A stretch of 64,000 nucleotides of DNA, taken from Patescibacteria group bacterium. GTDB taxonomy: Bacteria; Patescibacteriota; Patescibacteriia; UBA2591; UBA4787. Position 1 is the first letter of the stretch. Each line of letters starts with the position of its first letter. The position numbers and the translations under genes are program-made. The stretch spans positions 210,816 to 274,815 of the forward strand of contig JAQUSN010000002.1 of NCBI GenBank assembly GCA_028715115.1. The letters are read 5' to 3'. Below are positions 8,685 through 62,003 of this stretch, piece by piece. The notes beneath the pieces were generated by a model. The model ran no database searches, had not been told where the DNA came from, and saw only the letters and a program-made list of their open reading frames with translations.

Positions 8685-8954
8685 ATGCCGTATCATTCAC
8701 CGCAAGCAAGAAAAGGAGCAATGATGTCTGTAACGGCCAAGGCGACCGTTTTTAAGCGCAGAGATACGTCGGTTATGACCGGCTGGCCAACTCGCGTCGT
8801 GAGACTTAAGGAGGACGAAACGCCACACGACCAGTCCCTGCACTTGGCGCATATCTGCGAATGCGACGCAGATGACCAGGCCAGAAAAGACGTTCTCTCC
8901 TTCTGGCTGCCCGAAAAATCCCTAAGAGAACACTACGAACCCGTGGAGGTGTAA
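8685..8954 (+). CDS. GC-rich small soluble protein. The start is more likely the ATG at 8724, which is preceded by AAGGAG.
   Basis: The ORF is bracketed by a consensus promoter and a strong terminator. No recognisable family. Confidence 0.45.
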   Translation: MPYHSPQARKGAMMSVTAKATVFKRRDTSVMTGWPTRVVRLKEDETPHDQSLHLAHICECDADDQARKDVLSFWLPEKSLREHYEPVEV

Positions 8955-9867: not shown

Positions 9868-10044
9868 ATGTTCGGATTCGGAAGCATCGGCGAATTGCTC
9901 AATGACCCCGCTGGTCCGATCTACTGCGGATTCATCCTGCTGGGTATAACGGTGATACTGGCAATCCCGGGACTGTTCATAGCGGCAATGCTGGACACAA
10001 GACGGGCGAAGAAAGAAGAAGAGGCAAAGGGTAGAGCCTCTTAA
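9868..10044 (+). CDS. Small membrane peptide of 58 aa (MFGFGSIGELLNDPAGPIYCGFILLGITVILAIPGLFIAAMLDTRRAKKEEEAKGRAS).
   Basis: AAGGAGG ribosome-binding site 7 nt upstream. One TM helix and a charged C-terminus. GC-rich. Confidence 0.5.
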   Translation: MFGFGSIGELLNDPAGPIYCGFILLGITVILAIPGLFIAAMLDTRRAKKEEEAKGRAS

Positions 10045-13284: not shown

Positions 13285-13313
13285 TTGACAAAATTATAAA
13301 ATATGCTAATCTA
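13285..13313 (+). promoter_or_regulatory. Promoter TTGACAAAATTATAAAATATGCTAATCT (cassette e, first unit).
   Basis: Close match to the promoter at 9823. Confidence 0.45.
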
Positions 13314-13346
13314 TATTCATTGATCGAGGGTCTAAAAAGGAGCTAC

Positions 13347-13409
13347 ATGAAGAAGCTGAAGCCCGATCTTACGTTGATGCACACCCTGTACTGCGCGAGC
13401 GGCGACTGA
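13347..13409 (+). CDS. Possible 20 aa leader peptide (MKKLKPDLTLMHTLYCASGD).
   Basis: Good ribosome-binding site (AAAAAGGAG) 6 nt upstream. Followed by an ORF-free GC-rich region. Confidence 0.25.
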   Translation: MKKLKPDLTLMHTLYCASGD

Positions 13410-13580
13410 TCGCGGACCCGGGCCGGCCCGAACCGGTCGATCCATGGAGGAATAATGAGCGGATTCGTCTAAGAACCAGCCAGGTGCGGGTAAAACCCGC
13501 ACTAGTCCCACAATTAGGGGATGGTTCGAACCGGCGAATACATCCCTGAAGGAGCGTCCTGTGGCGCTCCTTTTCTTTTA
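13410..13580 (+). ncRNA. GC-rich untranslated segment ending in a terminator (AGGAGCG..CGCTCCT + TTTTCTTTT). Candidate small RNA or cis-regulatory leader.
   Basis: No ORF. Internal repeats of 'CGAACCGG'. A terminator hairpin at 13549-13580. Confidence 0.25.
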
Positions 13581-13594
13581 TATTATAGCGTGGC

Positions 13595-13623
13595 TTGACA
13601 AAAAACGAAAAAATAAATAATAT
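13595..13623 (+). promoter_or_regulatory. Promoter TTGACA-N17-TAATAT (cassette e, second unit).
   Basis: The track ORF 13595..14116 begins with the TTG of this -35 box. The true start is more likely 13679. Confidence 0.45.
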
Positions 13624-13678
13624 AAATATGGAGAGTTTATTCTCTTTTTCGCAAAGCACGCAAAACACTGGAGGAACC

Positions 13679-14116
13679 ATGGCAGAAGCAACGATGAGGG
13701 TCAACCGCCCATCGCGGTATCAAGACATCGCCGGGATAGCAATCACTATCCTGATTATGATCTTGGTGGCCTCTCCCGGTCTATACCCGATGATCAAGGG
13801 AGGACTGGTGATGAGCGCCAAGACCTCGGGATGGTTGACTACCACAATTCTTGTCGCGTCCGTGATCGTAGGTGTGATAGCGATGTTTGTCCTGGCCGAA
13901 TGGGATGCCCGTTCCAACAGATTCCCTTTCGCCGCCTGGAAGGTCATCCTCTGTACCTACCTCCTCAACTTCATCGTCTCGCTCACTCTCACCTTTGCCG
14001 CCGCAAGATCACCGGCTCACATCGTCTGCGCAATCGTCGGTGGTCTCTACGTCGGCGTCGTCGCCTTCGTAATGCTGTGTCTGTGGGCTATAGGCAGCAC
14101 CGAGGCGGAGCTCTAG
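13679..14116 (+). CDS. GC-rich polytopic membrane protein (about 145 aa, 4 TM).
   Basis: GGAGG ribosome-binding site 4-5 nt upstream of the ATG at 13679. Hydrophobic segments. Followed by complex terminators. Confidence 0.5.
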   Translation: MAEATMRVNRPSRYQDIAGIAITILIMILVASPGLYPMIKGGLVMSAKTSGWLTTTILVASVIVGVIAMFVLAEWDARSNRFPFAAWKVILCTYLLNFIVSLTLTFAAARSPAHIVCAIVGGLYVGVVAFVMLCLWAIGSTEAEL

Positions 14117-16257: not shown

Positions 16258-16286
16258 CTTGACAAAAGCGCAAAATGTGATAAAAT
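16258..16286 (+). promoter_or_regulatory. Promoter TTGACAAAAGCGCAAAATGTGATAAAAT (cassette f).
   Basis: Family consensus. Confidence 0.5.
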
Positions 16287-16311
16287 GTAAATATTGAACT
16301 CAGGAGGCTTT

Positions 16312-16497
16312 ATGACAAAGATCAGGACTGCAAACTGGATGCTCTGGATAGGATGTACGGCCCTTGTTGTAGGGGTCATCCTCTGCTTCTACACACACCT
16401 AAGCTGGTGGAAGGTGACGATGACTGGGATTGGGGCTGCGTCTTTACTGACGTCCATCTCCCTCGACCCCAGGGTAGCCTTCCCTTTCTTGGGATAG
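16312..16497 (+). CDS. Small membrane peptide of 61 aa (MTKIRTANWMLWIGCTALVVGVILCFYTHLSWWKVTMTGIGAASLLTSISLDPRVAFPFLG).
   Basis: AGGAGG ribosome-binding site 5-6 nt upstream. Two hydrophobic helices. The track ORF 16294..16497 begins at an upstream TTG. Confidence 0.5.
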   Translation: MTKIRTANWMLWIGCTALVVGVILCFYTHLSWWKVTMTGIGAASLLTSISLDPRVAFPFLG

Positions 16498-17868: not shown

Positions 17869-18411
17869 CTATGGCTCATCTTCTGTTTCCTCTGTGTGGT
17901 CCACTATTGGGAAAACGCTCAGGATCATCACGCTTAGGACTTTTCTCGGCAACATTAGCGTCACCATCTCGCCCATTGTTTTGCCTAACAGTTGTTGAGC
18001 CAACGGAGAATCAACCGAGGCAAAACAAATCTCTCTTCCTTTAGATTCCCGATAGCGTGGGTTAAAAACCAGATCGGCGGCTCCTACGATCCCGTAAACA
18101 TCCATCTCTTGAGTGTCGATGTCCAGCGTTTTGGCGCACATTCCTGGCCTGACTGTTGGAAGAACTCCGCTTTCGGGCGGCAGGTCTTCGATGAACTTAG
18201 GATCGTGCAGAAATTGCCGAACCGTTGCCAGGTTCTGCATCCGGCTCTTTTGCTGCCGCAGCAGGTTCAACCAATCAGGATTGTCGTGCCAACCACCACC
18301 AGTCTCGTACGATCTCCCAACCTGTCCCGATACTCGCTCTAACTCCTTCATTAGACTTGCGTGTTCTTTTTGAAGGAGCATAAGCGTTTCTCGAAACATT
18401 ATGTTTTCCAT
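17869..18411 (-). CDS. GreA/GreB-family transcription elongation factor-like protein. GC-rich cassette g.
   Basis: C-terminal FKBP-like segment ICFASVDSPLAQQLLGKTMGEMV resembles the GreA 'ISVNSPIARGLIGK..' region. N-terminal coiled coil. AAAGGAGG ribosome-binding site. Confidence 0.6.
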   Translation of the reverse strand: MENIMFRETLMLLQKEHASLMKELERVSGQVGRSYETGGGWHDNPDWLNLLRQQKSRMQNLATVRQFLHDPKFIEDLPPESGVLPTVRPGMCAKTLDIDTQEMDVYGIVGAADLVFNPRYRESKGREICFASVDSPLAQQLLGKTMGEMVTLMLPRKVLSVMILSVFPIVDHTEETEDEP

Positions 18412-18449
18412 TAGACCTCCTTTCTAGACTATAGTAGCTCTCTCTAACA

Positions 18450-18485
18450 CTATTAATATATCATTTTTTTACTTTTTGTCAAGTA
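18450..18485 (-). promoter_or_regulatory. Promoter CTTGACAAAAAGTAAAAAAATGATATATTAAT (minus strand) for the GreA-like gene.
   Basis: Same family consensus as the plus-strand cassettes. Confidence 0.45.
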
Positions 18486-27119: not shown

Positions 27120-27147
27120 TTGACAAAAGGATAAAATGTGATATGAT
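27120..27147 (+). promoter_or_regulatory. Promoter CTTGACAAAAGGATAAAATGTGATATGAT (cassette h).
   Basis: -35 TTGACA, 16 nt spacer, -10 TATGAT. Confidence 0.5.
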
Positions 27148-27218
27148 ATAAGTACAGAATTCAATAGAGTCTTCTAATCCCTTGTCTCACGACAAGGATA
27201 TTCTCAAGGAGGTAACTC

Positions 27219-27605
27219 ATGAAAAAGCTGGCCCTGTTTGCAACGTATAGCGTTTTGACGTGGGGGTGCATTTTCGCCACGACCCACAAGCCCCTCCCTG
27301 GCCTCATCGGCATTCTGTTGTATGCAGTATTGGTTCTCTACTTCGATGTCGAGGACCGCAGATGGTGGGCTCGCAACCACAAACGGACACAGTCACCTGC
27401 ACCCAACTTCGACGTCATCACGGGATATAGTTGGCTGATGGTAGGCGCAGTCTCTTTCTTGGTGAGCCTACCCTTCATGCCAAGCACCGCCACCATCTTC
27501 CATGTCTTCGCTCCTACGTTTGTAACGACCATCATCGCCGGAGCTATCAACACGCTGATGAGACTACACCAAAACAGCCACGACCAGAAAGTCGTCAGAG
27601 GCTAA
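27219..27605 (+). CDS. GC-rich membrane protein of 128 aa.
   Basis: AAGGAGG ribosome-binding site 6 nt upstream. 3-4 TM helices. The 5' UTR contains a CCTTGTC..GACAAGG hairpin. Confidence 0.5.
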   Translation: MKKLALFATYSVLTWGCIFATTHKPLPGLIGILLYAVLVLYFDVEDRRWWARNHKRTQSPAPNFDVITGYSWLMVGAVSFLVSLPFMPSTATIFHVFAPTFVTTIIAGAINTLMRLHQNSHDQKVVRG

Positions 27606-40601: not shown

Positions 40602-41213
40602 TTATTTAATTTTAAGCGAAGAAACCATTAGTTCGATGGGTTGATTAATGGTTATGGTACGGTCGAGATTTCTACATTCGGTTTCAAATTGTGTTTCGCA
40701 ATATGCCCCGCAACTACCATCGCCACAACCAAGATGAGACCAAACCACAAAATATAAAACATAAAATTTTTGGTGCTTCTGGGCCACGTAGCAATAAGTA
40801 TTATATAACGAACCAGCGCCAGCATCCGAACCCTTCCAAAATTGATAACTGATTTTATTAATAGTCACGTCTTGTTCGACGCTGCCGGTCGGAAGCTCCG
40901 GACAACCGATCTTTAAGGCGTCTTGGCTGCTTTGGACGATTGTTAATTTTGGCGGCCAGGATTGCGCTCGCCAAACATTAGCGCCAAAAGTAGCTGGATA
41001 GCGAAAAGTAGTGCCGTTAATGTTGTCGAGATATGTCAGCCAATCACTGGGAATTTTATAGGCTGGATTATTTGGTTGGTAATTAACGATAAATTTAGTC
41101 GCCAATAAGAGCAAAATGGCGAAAACAATAACAATGATAATCCAAATGATTCTTTTTTTCATAAAATTAAATTTATATATTAAAATTATATCTTGATATA
41201 ATTTTACTGTCAA
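40602..41213 (-). CDS. Hypothetical secreted/TM-anchored Cys-rich protein.
   Basis: N-terminal TM helix. C-terminal CGDGSCGAYCETQFETEC. Confidence 0.35.
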   Translation of the reverse strand: MTVKLYQDIILIYKFNFMKKRIIWIIIVIVFAILLLLATKFIVNYQPNNPAYKIPSDWLTYLDNINGTTFRYPATFGANVWRAQSWPPKLTIVQSSQDALKIGCPELPTGSVEQDVTINKISYQFWKGSDAGAGSLYNTYCYVAQKHQKFYVLYFVVWSHLGCGDGSCGAYCETQFETECRNLDRTITINQPIELMVSSLKIK

Positions 41214-41229
41214 TATATTAAAATATCTT

Positions 41230-41263
41230 TAAAAAATAAAGGCGGCGCTTGCGCACCGCCTCG
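41230..41263 (-). terminator. Terminator of the GC-rich pyr island (GGCGGTGCGC AAGC GCGCCGCC + T tract on the minus strand).
   Basis: GC-rich hairpin directly after the PRTase stop. Confidence 0.55.
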
Positions 41264-41282
41264 GTTACTGACACCTTCCTGC

Positions 41283-42026
41283 CTACTGCCTTGTCTTGGC
41301 CATGGCCTCCATCAGTCGAGGCCACTCTGCCTTCGGTTTCAAGATCACGTTGCCGGCTGCGATGTCAGCCGCAACTGCCGGATCGTCCTGCTTCCACTGC
41401 TCGGTTGGCTTATTGACCAGAGCCACAACCGGCCTCTTTTCCCATTCCATTTTACCGGAACGGTTCAAGAAACAACCAACCCCAACCAGTCTTGCGCCGG
41501 TAGTCCCAATCGCAGCAGCGGCCTGACCGGTAGTAGAGTAGTTATTGCAGACATCTTCCACCAACAGGCATGGCGCATCGCGACCGATGTCATGACGCGA
41601 CAGAACCAGTTCGGACTGCTCGCGGCTCGTACCGGTAGCCAAGGCCGTCACCCTCTTCTCCAGGAAGGCAAACCGCTTACGCAGCGCCATCGCTACCAAA
41701 GCGGCCAATACGATACCTCCCATAGGTGCACCAATGACGACGTCGAATTGCGAATCGAAATCGCCATGACGCAACTCAAAGCCCAGTCTCTCGGCTTCTT
41801 GTCGAAGAACGTTGGGGTCTTGCTCGAGTGTAGCAACGTTGAAGTAAACGTCGCCGACATACTGCAGTTTCTGCCCATCAGATCCCTCGTAACGGCCAGC
41901 ATAACCGACTAGAGGTCCGAGACGCTTGCCGGTTATGGGGTCTCTTGGACAGGCATAGTAGCCACCCGCGGCATGAAGTATATCTAGCGGATCACTTGCC
42001 GGACCTATTTCTTCCATTTCATTCAC
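41283..42026 (-). CDS. Type I phosphoribosyltransferase, orotate phosphoribosyltransferase-like. GC-rich.
   Basis: PRPP-binding motif LLVEDVCNNYSTTGQAA. Directly downstream of pyrF. Confidence 0.5.
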   Translation of the reverse strand: MNEMEEIGPASDPLDILHAAGGYYACPRDPITGKRLGPLVGYAGRYEGSDGQKLQYVGDVYFNVATLEQDPNVLRQEAERLGFELRHGDFDSQFDVVIGAPMGGIVLAALVAMALRKRFAFLEKRVTALATGTSREQSELVLSRHDIGRDAPCLLVEDVCNNYSTTGQAAAAIGTTGARLVGVGCFLNRSGKMEWEKRPVVALVNKPTEQWKQDDPAVAADIAAGNVILKPKAEWPRLMEAMAKTRQ

Positions 42027-42050
42027 CTCCTTTCATTGGTGAGTTTGGAG

Positions 42051-42953
42051 TTATACGTGCTCGTCGCCAGCGGGAAAAGGAATGTCGCCGCCAGCCGCCC
42101 TGATCTGATCGCGTAGCTTCTCGGCTTCTGCGGCCGGATCGCTGGCGAAGATGATGCCGGACGATGAGTTGATGGTGATGGAACCGGGTCCTGCGAAAGC
42201 AGCCTTGACCGTCTCTTCGACGAATCCCTTCTGCGTTCCGATGCCCGGAATGAGCATCCACATCTCGTTGCCCACGATCTCCCTACATCTTGAAAGGTGC
42301 CAGAAGTAGACCTTGGACTCGTCGCTCGGATCCTTGTGAGCCGCGCCCATGACTACGCCGGCATTCTCGATGACCCCCAGCTCTTTCGACCACTGAAGCA
42401 GATTCTGGACCATGAACTCCCAGAAACGCAGACCGCTCTCCATCTTCGCATCCTAGATAACCCAGGCTTCTTTGTTGCTGGTCCGACCGAGGCCGACTAG
42501 TGCTCGACCCGGACGCTTTTCGTCGATCAGCGACATGAGCGTATCCTTGCCCATGTATCCGACGAAGTTCATCCCATCGGCGTTTTCGAGGCCGAGGTGA
42601 GTATTGCCGTAGAGCCTCTGAGTACGATCGATGTCGCCCCTCTTGCAGTCAACCATCACCGGAATGTCCGGATGATTCGCGTGGATGTAGCCGATGAGCA
42701 TCTTGAGAACCCCAAGCCCATCGGGAATTGCCTCCCAGTGAGCGTGCTGGAACTTGAACATCGACGCAGCGTGTTCGGTATCATCGATGACGCCCATCAT
42801 CCACAGATAGAGAGCGACATGCACAGCACATCCCATCTCCAGGAACCTGGACGGCATCCTCTCGATCAGCGGATCGAGGCCGACACAGACGAGGGAGTTT
42901 GCCCTCTTCTGCCTTTCTGTTAGCTTCTTGCGGAACCGTCTGTCTTCTGCCAT
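42051..42953 (-). pseudogene. pyrF: Orotidine-5'-phosphate decarboxylase (type 2 PyrF) interrupted by an in-frame TAG at 42444-42446.
   Basis: The upstream part has VCVGLDP and MVDCKRGDI (D-x-K-x-x-D). The downstream part has LIPGIGTQ. The two track ORFs (42453..42953 and 42051..42443) are in the same frame, separated by a single amber codon. Confidence 0.65.
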
Positions 42954-43034
42954 TACGAACTCCTTTGTGTTTGGTGTTTTTCCTAAAGAACAAGAGGCTA
43001 AGCCCTCCTAGCAGCTTTGCCCCCTCTATAATTA

Positions 43035-43063
43035 CATTATCCTGCTTTTTCTAGTTTTGTCAA
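43035..43063 (-). promoter_or_regulatory. Promoter TTGACAAAACTAGAAAAAGCAGGATAATG (minus strand) for the pyrF/PRTase island.
   Basis: Family consensus. AAGGAG ribosome-binding site before the pyrF ATG. Confidence 0.4.
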
Positions 43064-43108
43064 TAATAAAAAATACCCCTATATTAAAAAGGTATTTTAA
43101 AGTTTAAT

Positions 43109-43615
43109 TTATAATAGATCCTTGACTCTCTCGAAATCATTTCTGAATCCTTCACAAAACTTATCATGATTTTCTTTCGTCCCCTGTTCTATCTCGTTAA
43201 ATGTCATTCTGCTATAAGAAACCAATTCATGATTAAGCTTCGGTTCCTGGTCTGTCTCGGCTAAAAATACGCCGCAAAAAATCTTAAACCTTTTTCCATT
43301 ATATTCATTCTCTTGATAAAACTTATCGAGCATTTTTAGCTCGCAGTCGATGCCCAATTCTTCCATTAATTCTCTTTTTGCCGCGGTTTCATAATCTTCA
43401 CCGGCATCAACGTTGCCAAAGGCAGATAAATCGTATTTATCGGCGTCTAGTTTTTTATGAGAAGCGCGCTTGCTGACTACAAATCTGTTGTTCGAATCGC
43501 GCACAAAAATAGCCACAACTCGGGAAATAAAATTAAGTTCTGGCTTTTTACTTTTTAATTCCTTGCCGATCACCTCGTCGTTTTCATCCACTACGTCTAC
43601 ATAATGATCTGCCAT
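43109..43615 (-). CDS. NUDIX hydrolase.
   Basis: Nudix box GNVDAGEDYETAAKRELMEELGI. Confidence 0.7.
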   Translation of the reverse strand: MADHYVDVVDENDEVIGKELKSKKPELNFISRVVAIFVRDSNNRFVVSKRASHKKLDADKYDLSAFGNVDAGEDYETAAKRELMEELGIDCELKMLDKFYQENEYNGKRFKIFCGVFLAETDQEPKLNHELVSYSRMTFNEIEQGTKENHDKFCEGFRNDFERVKDLL

Positions 43616-44109: not shown

Positions 44110-44203
44110 CGGAGTCTAATCTGGGAGACCTGGATTCGAACCAGGATAGACAGATCCAGAGTCTGCCGTCCTACCGTTAGACGATCTCCCAGATTAGACT
44201 CCG
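44110..44203. repeat. 19 nt inverted repeat (CGGAGTCTAATCTGGGAGA / TCTCCCAGATTAGACTCCG) enclosing tRNA-Gln. It extends the acceptor stem by 11 bp.
   Basis: The arms are perfect reverse complements, at 44110-44128 and 44185-44203. Confidence 0.6.
44121..44191 (-). tRNA. tRNA-Gln (anticodon CTG). No encoded CCA.
   Basis: U1:A72 and G73 as in bacterial tRNA-Gln. T arm CCTGG-TTCGAAT-CCAGG identical to E. coli tRNA-Gln. Anticodon loop CTCTGGA. Confidence 0.7.
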
Positions 44204-44212
44204 CTATACAAT

Positions 44213-44238
44213 ATTCTAACATTCTTAAGAATGTTAGA
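44213..44238. terminator. Perfect 26 nt palindrome TTCTAACATTCTT|AAGAATGTTAGAA, just downstream of the dnaX stop and upstream of tRNA-Gln.
   Basis: Perfect inverted repeat. It shares the 13-mer AAGAATGTTAGAA with the dispersed element. Confidence 0.45.
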
Positions 44239-44264
44239 ATATTATTTTATGAAAAAAATAAAGT

Positions 44265-61573: not shown

Positions 61574-61602
61574 TTGACAAAAGCCAAAAAATATATTAAA
61601 AT
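61574..61602 (+). promoter_or_regulatory. Promoter TTGACAAAAGCCAAAAAATATATTAAAAT (cassette k).
   Basis: -35 TTGACA, 17 nt spacer, -10 TAAAAT. Confidence 0.5.
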
Positions 61603-61622
61603 AAAAACATTCAAGGAGGCCT

Positions 61623-62003
61623 ATGGCTCTTCCCATAACGAAAAATCCACCTACGACGATTAGTAGAGGTGACGTCATGAGGCGCCTAAGAGAATCCGGA
61701 AATCCTGTCTGGAGAAGCTTTGTCCTGCCAAGGCGCGAACATCTACGGCCCGATGAGAAACTCCGACTCTTCAGCTTCGCACCGGTTCAAGAGACTCTTC
61801 TGCCGATCCCCTTGTCAGTTGACGAACTGAGAATAGAAGCGATCGAAGGCGACCGGATCATCTTTGCCGATCCGTGGCAAGACGGCATTACGCCAAGACC
61901 CAGTCCGCTGTCCATCGTCGAAATACTCACAGACACAGTCAGGCTGACGCCGGAAGGAGAGTTCACGCTCTATCTGGTACGCCTTGAACGCCCCCGTCAC
62001 TAA
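61623..62003 (+). CDS. GC-rich hypothetical soluble protein (126 aa).
   Basis: AAGGAGG ribosome-binding site 3-4 nt upstream. Promoter and terminator bracket the ORF. No family. Confidence 0.45.
   Translation: MALPITKNPPTTISRGDVMRRLRESGNPVWRSFVLPRREHLRPDEKLRLFSFAPVQETLLPIPLSVDELRIEAIEGDRIIFADPWQDGITPRPSPLSIVEILTDTVRLTPEGEFTLYLVRLERPRH

Follow-up and report, generated by a model that had tools for sequence, protein, structure and literature searches.

Organization of the GC-rich block

The 64-kb window analyzed here, that is, the whole stretch of 64,000 nucleotides (nt) from contig JAQUSN010000002.1 of a Patescibacteria group bacterium, carries a block of high guanine-plus-cytosine (GC) content that contains a pyrF gene interrupted by an in-frame TAG (amber) codon. 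The block (41.24 to 43.03 kb) is a single minus-strand operon consisting of a promoter, a leader, pyrF, a gene encoding an orotate phosphoribosyltransferase (PRTase)-like protein, and an intrinsic terminator. The chromosome of the host, a tiny bacterium of the symbiotic type that belongs to the Patescibacteria, or candidate phyla radiation (CPR), has a GC content of ~38%, and most of the window lies at 30 to 45%, compared with 54 to 56% in 500-nt windows within the block (41501 to 43000; block limits, ~41240 to 43030). Both edges are sharp at a resolution of 100 nt, with GC changing from 0.16 to 0.59 at the downstream edge (~41240) and from 0.57 to 0.32 at the upstream edge (~43030). The GC island, the operon, and the in-frame TAG are not a chance pattern.

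The operon is preceded by a sigma-70-type promoter (43036 to 43063, minus strand) with a −35 element, TTGACA, at 43063 to 43058, a 16-nt spacer, and a −10 element, GATAAT, at 43041 to 43036. This promoter matches the consensus at 11 of 12 positions, is AT-rich, and is positioned just outside the GC-rich block. A putative 5′ leader of ~76 nt (42954 to 43029, minus strand) includes a weak hairpin at ~43025 to 42992 and a Shine-Dalgarno sequence, AAGGAG, at 42965 to 42960, 6 nt from the ATG. The first gene begins with the ATG at 42953, and its codons 1 to 166 (42456 to 42953, minus strand) encode D27, K67, the D102-x-K104-x-x-D107 motif, and T158-S159-N160. Codon 167 is the amber codon (42453 to 42455, minus strand), which stands in place of an invariant Gln and is followed in the same frame by 133 sense codons (codons 168 to 300; 42051 to 42452, minus strand) before the TAA at 42053 to 42051. 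This second part encodes P236-G-I-G-T-Q241 and the phosphate-binding loop N262-S-S-S265. The second gene (41283 to 42017, minus strand) encodes an orotate-PRTase-like type I phosphoribosyltransferase of 244 amino acids; its ATG, at 42017, lies eight nt downstream of GGAGG (42030 to 42026), and it ends with a TAG at 41285 to 41283. An intrinsic terminator (41232 to 41262, minus strand), made up of a 10-bp GC-rich stem (41262 to 41239) and a subsequent T run, forms the downstream edge of the block. A preliminary description of this locus, made from the sequence alone, had reported a 1.8-kb block of higher GC with a minus-strand promoter and a strong terminator, all of which are borne out here. 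The leader folds no better than shuffled sequences (z-score, −0.37) and has no match of note in Rfam, which rules out a riboswitch or attenuator in these 76 nt.

Identity of the two genes

The first gene is a type-2 orotidine 5′-monophosphate (OMP) decarboxylase gene (pyrF) with an interrupted reading frame. Both halves of the frame match the Pfam family OMPdecase (PF00215), with the N-terminal part alone scoring 36.1 bits (cut-off, 27), and the frame with Gln restored at codon 167 passes the NCBIfam model TIGR02127 (pyrF_sub2) with 144 bits, compared with a cut-off of 110.6. The AlphaFold model of the restored protein, which has a predicted local distance difference test (pLDDT) score of 93.7, is a TIM barrel ((β/α)8) and aligns in Foldseek with 3qw4, 4mjz, and 2za1, the OMP decarboxylases of Leishmania, Toxoplasma, and Plasmodium, at template modeling (TM) scores of 0.76 to 0.83. 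In an alignment with 27 homologs, D27, K67, D102, K104, D107, Q241, and N262 to S265 all fall in invariant columns. The DCKRGD motif at residues 102 to 107 and PGIGTQ at residues 236 to 241 are both present, as expected from the earlier statement that the two catalytic halves are otherwise intact. The protein shares D-x-K-x-x-D, K67, D27, TSN, PGIGTQ, and NSSS with the type-2 OMP decarboxylases (TIGR02127), including those of Plasmodium and Toxoplasma and the domain of the Leishmania donovani UMP synthase (UMPS; 3qw3/3qw4). It differs from the solved type-2 structures in belonging to a CPR-typical clade that is only 25 to 30% identical to them and, unlike type-2 enzymes with an uninterrupted frame, is broken by the TAG at the invariant Gln167.

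The second gene matches the Pfam family Pribosyltran (PF00156) with 33 bits against a cut-off of 26 and encodes a loop for the binding of phosphoribosyl pyrophosphate (PRPP). Its scores are far below the cut-offs of all NCBIfam PyrE models (TIGR01367, 42 versus 150.25; TIGR00336, 23.4 versus 106.8; and NF002620, 30.7 versus 115), and no sequence-level match was found in the PDB. The AlphaFold model of the protein has a pLDDT of 95.4, and its top Foldseek matches are 4paw (HP1257), 4ohc, 9e5g, 2wns, and 2ps1, with E values of 1e-13 to 1e-10, so that it is closest to HP1257 and true orotate PRTases, adenine PRTases being ranked lower. HP1257 is the annotated PyrE of Helicobacter pylori. In ~13 of 62 genome loci, a relative of the PRTase gene comes immediately after pyrF. 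The closest of all relatives (L072; 53% identity) follows a pyrF-type gene, only ~30% identical to that of the window, with a gap of 4 nt. The predicted fold of the protein and the association of its gene with pyrF favor an orotate PRTase, and "pyrE-like" is a fair functional guess. The preliminary description had identified the products as a type-2 OMP decarboxylase and an orotate-PRTase-like enzyme, and both identities are supported, the PRTase as no more than pyrE-like.

The PRTase has the type I PRTase fold and the PRPP-binding loop in common with PyrE of the Thermus/Helicobacter type (TIGR01367; PDB 4paw, H. pylori HP1257). It is ~40 to 60 residues longer than most of the matched orotate PRTase chains and, compared with PyrE, has an N-terminal motif, GGYYxCPxD...GKRLGPLVGYAG, and a C-terminal motif, QDDPAVAxDIAxGNVVWKPK. 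These two motifs and EDVCNNFSTT are conserved in the family of the window protein (41283 to 42017, minus strand; P0122 to P0240), whose members are ~250 amino acids long and account for 274 database matches, many of them named "hypothetical." The family looks like an uncurated CPR family of orotate PRTases. Poorly annotated as it is and below the curated PyrE thresholds, it merits a family model of its own.

Position and reproducibility of the amber codon

The TAG in pyrF occupies 42455 to 42453 on the minus strand, directly after codon 166, in the peptide context EAWVI*DAKMESG. The preliminary description had recognized a single in-frame TAG in this same context, and the codon is real; the coordinates assigned to it, 42444 to 42446, are 9 nt off, and 42446 to 42444 are occupied by AAG (Lys170), the codon immediately before the ATG of the second open reading frame (ORF). 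In the alignment with the 27 homologs, the TAG column is an invariant Gln within the motif W-E-I-Q-D, and the Leishmania UMPS likewise has Gln at this position. At the nucleotide level, the codon is CAG in 44 and CAA in 22 of 66 homologous loci, with no other codon found. Because the position is CAG or CAA throughout the homologs, the TAG is a single C-to-T transition from the ancestral state.

The exact 166-amino-acid fragment is present on seven contigs, including one from the NCBI metagenome-assembled genome (MAG) GCA_028713815.1 and others from the Logan assemblies of three separate runs (SRR22315506, SRR22315507, and SRR22315509). The contigs with the locus are 99.99 to 100% identical to the window at the DNA level across both junctions into host genes, and each half of pyrF has four NCBI protein accessions, which derive from MAG records. 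Over 8.5 kb, the window differs from the MAG contig JAQTNO010000015.1 by one single-nucleotide polymorphism, a synonymous C/A difference in an Ala codon at 42123, which lies in pyrF beyond the TAG. A foreign composition combined with a lone stop codon is a classic warning sign of a sequencing or assembly artifact or of a chimeric contig. With both junctions and the TAG recovered unchanged from several NCBI MAGs as well as from separately sequenced runs assembled in Logan, and with contigs running across both junctions into host genes, an artifact is hardly credible here. Because the same TAG occurs in four NCBI MAG protein records and three independent Logan assemblies, it is not an assembly error, and the sequencing error that had been listed among the possible causes of the interruption is excluded as far as assemblies can tell. 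No intact allele of this pyrF was found among 5.8 billion proteins searched, the next best match being 65% identical.

Decoding of TAG in the host

TAG is an ordinary stop codon in the host genome. The 57 window ORFs of at least 100 amino acids end in TAA (40 ORFs), TAG (11 ORFs), or TGA (6 ORFs), which agrees with the earlier observation that TAG is used as a stop here. In the ten TAG-ending ORFs other than pyrF, the next in-frame stop follows after 1 to 33 codons through sequence that does not look coding, and a long conserved frame continues beyond the TAG only in pyrF. For example, the TAG of a MacB-like permease gene lies 8 residues past the end of the FtsX domain, and that of the island PRTase sits at the normal C terminus of its family. 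Stop codon usage and the lengths of the extensions past TAG rule out a genome-wide recoding of TAG. Readthrough of the PRTase gene's own TAG is also ruled out, as the homologs end where the window protein ends.

The host locus resembles systems with genetic code 25, in which UGA encodes Gly (the CPR groups Absconditabacteria and Gracilibacteria), and phages in which TAG encodes Gln, in that a stop codon stands where a conserved enzyme has an invariant amino acid. It differs from them in that the host ends 10 other genes in TAG, has a single internal TAG in 64 kb, and yielded no suppressor tRNA in the sequence screened. The tRNAs of the window are tRNA-His(GUG), tRNA-Gln(CUG), and tRNA-Glu(CUC) only. 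Approximately 30 kb of additional flanking sequence, obtained via the terminal genes, contains no tRNA, and no tRNA with a CUA anticodon or other suppressor tRNA was found in the ~95 kb screened in total. The suppressor tRNA considered in the preliminary description was not found in this part of the genome. The tRNA-Gln(CUG) gene (44120 to 44192, minus strand), 1.7 kb upstream of the operon, encodes a near-cognate tRNA that could misread UAG as Gln and is not a suppressor.

Gln is inserted at UAG in E. coli strains that are free of suppressors. In yeast, Gln, Tyr, and Lys are inserted at UAG (PMC4150775). Low-level production of wild-type PyrF by near-cognate insertion of Gln is therefore possible, and the sequence bears no sign of programming. 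A stronger version of this idea holds that pyrF is functional, with UAG167 being decoded as Gln often enough, by tRNA-Gln(CUG) or by an undetected suppressor, and with the amber codon acting as a throttle on a strongly promoted import. The replaced codon encodes the very residue that near-cognate reading of UAG would restore, a tRNA-Gln(CUG) gene lies nearby, the promoter is near consensus, the Shine-Dalgarno sequence is good, and neither pyrF nor the PRTase gene has a second lesion. Moreover, OMP decarboxylase is an extremely proficient enzyme, of which a small amount of protein might suffice. The match to Gln is, however, to be expected in any case, since few codons can turn into an amber codon in one step and CAG is among them. 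A G follows the TAG, which is not a known leaky context. The surroundings of the stop codon contain no significant structure and no known RNA motif, no conserved downstream structure or known recoding signal was recognized, and a stop is found at this position in none of the 66 homologous loci, so the site is not conserved as a recoding site. With 10 other genes terminating normally at TAG and no suppressor tRNA in the region screened, a functional, read-through pyrF is unlikely. A little less likely still is a low but physiologically relevant level of Gln incorporation at UAG167, by tRNA-Gln(CUG) or an unseen suppressor, that would throttle the imported pyrF, or, in a variant of this proposal, descent of the codon from a donor whose code assigns TAG to Gln. 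If readthrough did occur, it would represent natural stop codon readthrough gating a salvage enzyme in a CPR bacterium; the sequence requires none of that.

Another conceivable origin is a donor or phage vector with a TAG-to-Gln code, which would have supplied the gene with the amber codon already in it, so that the gene could not be read once in the host. The TAG indeed stands at a Gln position within a block of foreign composition, and codes in which TAG encodes Gln occur in some phages. An analogy is provided by a pyrF homolog (L042; JBBTZO010000064.1, 2548 to 3405) that has an in-frame TGA at codon 191, the invariant Gly of the ENAG motif, as in a code-25 lineage and as would be expected if that bin uses genetic code 25. 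The window operon, however, has a single such TAG, all remaining Gln positions of both genes being CAG or CAA, and its PRTase gene uses TAG as a terminator at the usual family C terminus. The nearest relatives have no in-frame TAG, the pyrF family was not found on the viral contigs of IMG/VR, which also speaks against a phage vector, and we know of no bacterial code in which TAG encodes Gln. Such an origin of the codon is extremely improbable.

Integrity of the genes and effect of the stop

Apart from the TAG, neither gene shows decay. Against a profile of its homologs, pyrF with Gln restored scores 468 bits, and left-out members score 480 ± 20 bits (leave-one-out with a fixed alignment); the corresponding values for the PRTase are 326 bits and 343 ± 19 bits. 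The invariant columns are all retained in both proteins. The TAG would be recent, because it is the sole lesion, unless selection is still acting on the gene.

In the AlphaFold model, residue 167 lies in a loop that follows strand 151 to 157 and a short helix and precedes helix 177 to 191. Of the eight strands of the barrel, the 166-amino-acid product has five, together with the Asp/Lys network, and is without strands 6 to 8 and the PGIGTQ and NSSS loops, which bind the phosphate and the base. Because these strands and loops are missing, the product cannot form a complete active site, and the truncated PyrF should be inactive, as judged from the model. The PRTase, which has its own ribosome-binding site, is probably still made.

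An enzyme assembled from two pieces would escape this loss. In such a scheme, translation would stop at UAG167 and restart at AUG171, and the polypeptides 1 to 166 and 171 to 300 would associate into an active barrel. A possible restart codon, the ATG at 42443 to 42441 (Met171), lies 7 nt downstream of AGGA (42454 to 42451), directly past the stop, the break falls in a loop of the predicted structure between the strand with its short helix and the next helix, and the public annotation lists two ORFs. The two pieces, however, would be without Q167, which is invariant, and D168, which is nearly so. The AGGA arises from the Q-D codons and the Met from a variable residue; both are ancestral, P0004 also having IQDAKM, and they are therefore not adaptations to a split. 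No homolog is split at the TAG position, and to our knowledge there is no precedent for a split OMP decarboxylase, which makes an active two-piece enzyme very unlikely.

Origin of the operon

The GC content at third codon positions (GC3) is 0.71 and 0.74 in the two parts of pyrF and 0.58 in the PRTase gene, compared with 0.33 ± 0.06 (maximum, 0.52) in 42 other window ORFs, which places pyrF ~6 standard deviations above the host genes. Amino acid composition as the cause of the high GC is ruled out, as the excess is greatest at third positions. Among 54 other loci of the pyrF family (L005 to L066, mostly CPR), the mean GC3 excess of the gene over its neighbors is +0.076, and the window has the largest excess. 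In 45 of the 54 genomes, the GC3 of the family is above that of the neighboring genes, by more than +0.15 in 12 of them. This general excess reflects either frequent transfer among CPR lineages or a codon bias of the gene's own.

The pyrF subfamily has 677 database matches and occurs in at least 62 species-level genomes, of which those with lineage-naming titles are mostly Patescibacteria; its hosts include Liptonbacteria, Zambryskibacteria, Staskawiczbacteria, Moraniibacteria, Falkowbacteria, Nealsonbacteria, and Absconditicoccaceae. In a neighbor-joining tree, the window pyrF groups with P0001 and P0004 inside a clade of Liptonbacteria, Zambryskibacteria, and several contigs with a GC content of 48 to 54%, and the contigs in the clade of its nearest relatives are mostly richer in GC. 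The GC3 values and the sharp edges of the block support a horizontal transfer that would be recent and directed into this host. The composition thus indicates transfer, as had been suggested, and the island is not foreign to the CPR. Since both gene families are CPR-wide, the donor was most likely another CPR lineage, unsampled so far and richer in GC.

In some CPR genomes, pyrD, pyrC, or another pyrE adjoins pyrF. Neither pyrD, pyrC, nor a second pyrE is present in the 64-kb window, and the operon is for this reason regarded as a stand-alone module from orotate to uridine 5′-monophosphate (UMP). The literature on CPR pyrE and pyrF yielded one relevant preprint only, according to which de novo nucleotide synthesis is missing from 93% of Minisyncoccota genomes and the genes for it, where they occur, are scattered across the phylogeny (bioRxiv 10.64898/2026.06.21.733656). 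This scattered distribution is consistent with repeated transfer.

A probable young pyrF pseudogene

The history that we consider probable for this locus is that the pyrF-PRTase operon was recently imported from one CPR lineage into another and that a CAG-to-TAG nonsense mutation then became fixed, which would make pyrF a young pseudogene. The ~1.8-kb operon would have been acquired by horizontal transfer from a GC-richer Patescibacteria lineage and inserted between two host genes of the nucleotide metabolism type. When intact, the pair would convert orotate and PRPP to OMP and OMP to UMP, that is, it would act as a module and not as a full de novo pathway. The change from CAG to TAG at the invariant Gln167 would then have become fixed in the sampled population, and translation would normally end after 166 residues. 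The sole path to an active enzyme would be an occasional misreading of UAG by tRNA-Gln(CUG), which would restore exactly the wild-type residue and probably yield trace amounts at most. In its single transition, its premature stop in a compositionally foreign gene, and its lack of other decay, the locus resembles ordinary nonsense pseudogenes in recently acquired islands. It differs from these in that no mobility genes or attachment repeats were seen at the island, the host has a reduced CPR genome, and the donor is apparently another CPR lineage. Most likely, pyrF has only just been broken and does not exemplify a novel genetic device; the finding is of a known kind.

Several observations weigh against this history. 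The assemblies carrying the locus are near-clonal samples of essentially one population, and because of this, "fixed" means fixed in the samples of one project only. A gene with a near-consensus promoter and no second lesion also fits a functional, read-through gene, and the sequence screened for suppressor tRNAs amounts to only ~95 kb of the genome. No integrase and no target site duplication were seen at the island. The only repeat in the flanks is an imperfect inverted repeat of 21 nt, matching at 17 of 21 positions, with one arm at 41218 to 41238 and the other at 43080 to 43100, on either side of the unit; it is AT-rich, is absent from the other GC-rich units, and is probably due to chance rather than being a terminal repeat of the island, as 15% of shuffled sequences do as well. 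No close relative of the host with or without the island was found when relatives of the flanking NUDIX gene and of dnaX were compared, and both the insertion and the recent date of the TAG are inferred from composition only.

If this history is correct, the locus records clean and datable gene traffic between CPR lineages, in which a complete promoter-to-terminator module from orotate to UMP, with its codon usage unameliorated, entered a host genome that is otherwise nucleotide scavenging in appearance. It would mean that the last two steps of UMP synthesis circulate as a unit within the Patescibacteria. It also suggests that such imports may disappear again almost immediately, in line with the patchy occurrence of nucleotide synthesis genes reported for the phylum. 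In the public annotation, the two genes appear as a truncated "orotidine 5′-phosphate decarboxylase" and a "hypothetical protein," and metabolic reconstructions would wrongly credit the host with a working PyrF.

Flanking genes, promoters, and other GC-rich units

The NUDIX gene that flanks the operon (43109 to 43615, minus strand) has relatives that are 70 to 77% identical (L067 to L070), three of which were checked and lie in unrelated neighborhoods. In these neighborhoods, the gene is often found among other small genes for nucleotide handling (HD, NTPase, and His_Phos). Further relatives, ~68 to 71% identical, are in bins labeled Woesearchaeota or Nanoarchaeia, and the gene appears to be mobile independently of its neighbors. 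The best dnaX relatives, from Joint Genome Institute (JGI) metagenomes, are 41 to 57% identical in the main aligned stretch and share none of the window genes between dnaX and DUF1015. A perfect, AT-rich, 15-bp palindrome, AATATTCTAACATTCTTAAGAATGTTAGAATATT, is located at 44210 to 44243 (plus strand), between dnaX and the tRNA-Gln(CUG) gene.

The promoter of the operon had been assigned to a family specific to cassettes. With at most one mismatch, TTGACAAAAC occurs 20 times, compared with 8 ± 2.7 expected occurrences. Near-consensus TTGACA-16/17-TAtAAT promoters stand upstream of several small GC-rich ORFs and also upstream of the AT-rich host gene at 41213, right after the island. The "cassette" promoter looks like the host's own strong sigma-70 consensus with an A-rich start of the spacer and not like a cassette-specific element, and its assignment to a cassette family is not upheld. 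The GC shift starts at the transcription start, and for this reason the promoter of the pyrF operon may be host derived.

At least 8 further small GC-rich units, with GC3 values of 0.56 to 0.69 compared with 0.33 for the host, lie behind near-consensus TTGACAAAA(G)-16/17-TAtAAT promoters. They are found at 8685 to 8954, 9868 to 10044, 13285 to 13470, 13595 to 14116, 16259 to 16497, 27120 to 27605, and 61574 to 62003 on the plus strand and at 17869 to 18482 on the minus strand, and most of them run counter to the prevailing gene direction. Short membrane-like proteins without a Pfam match are encoded by several units, and one encodes a protein resembling the GreA/B C terminus. No other unit in this series is as large as the pyrF operon.

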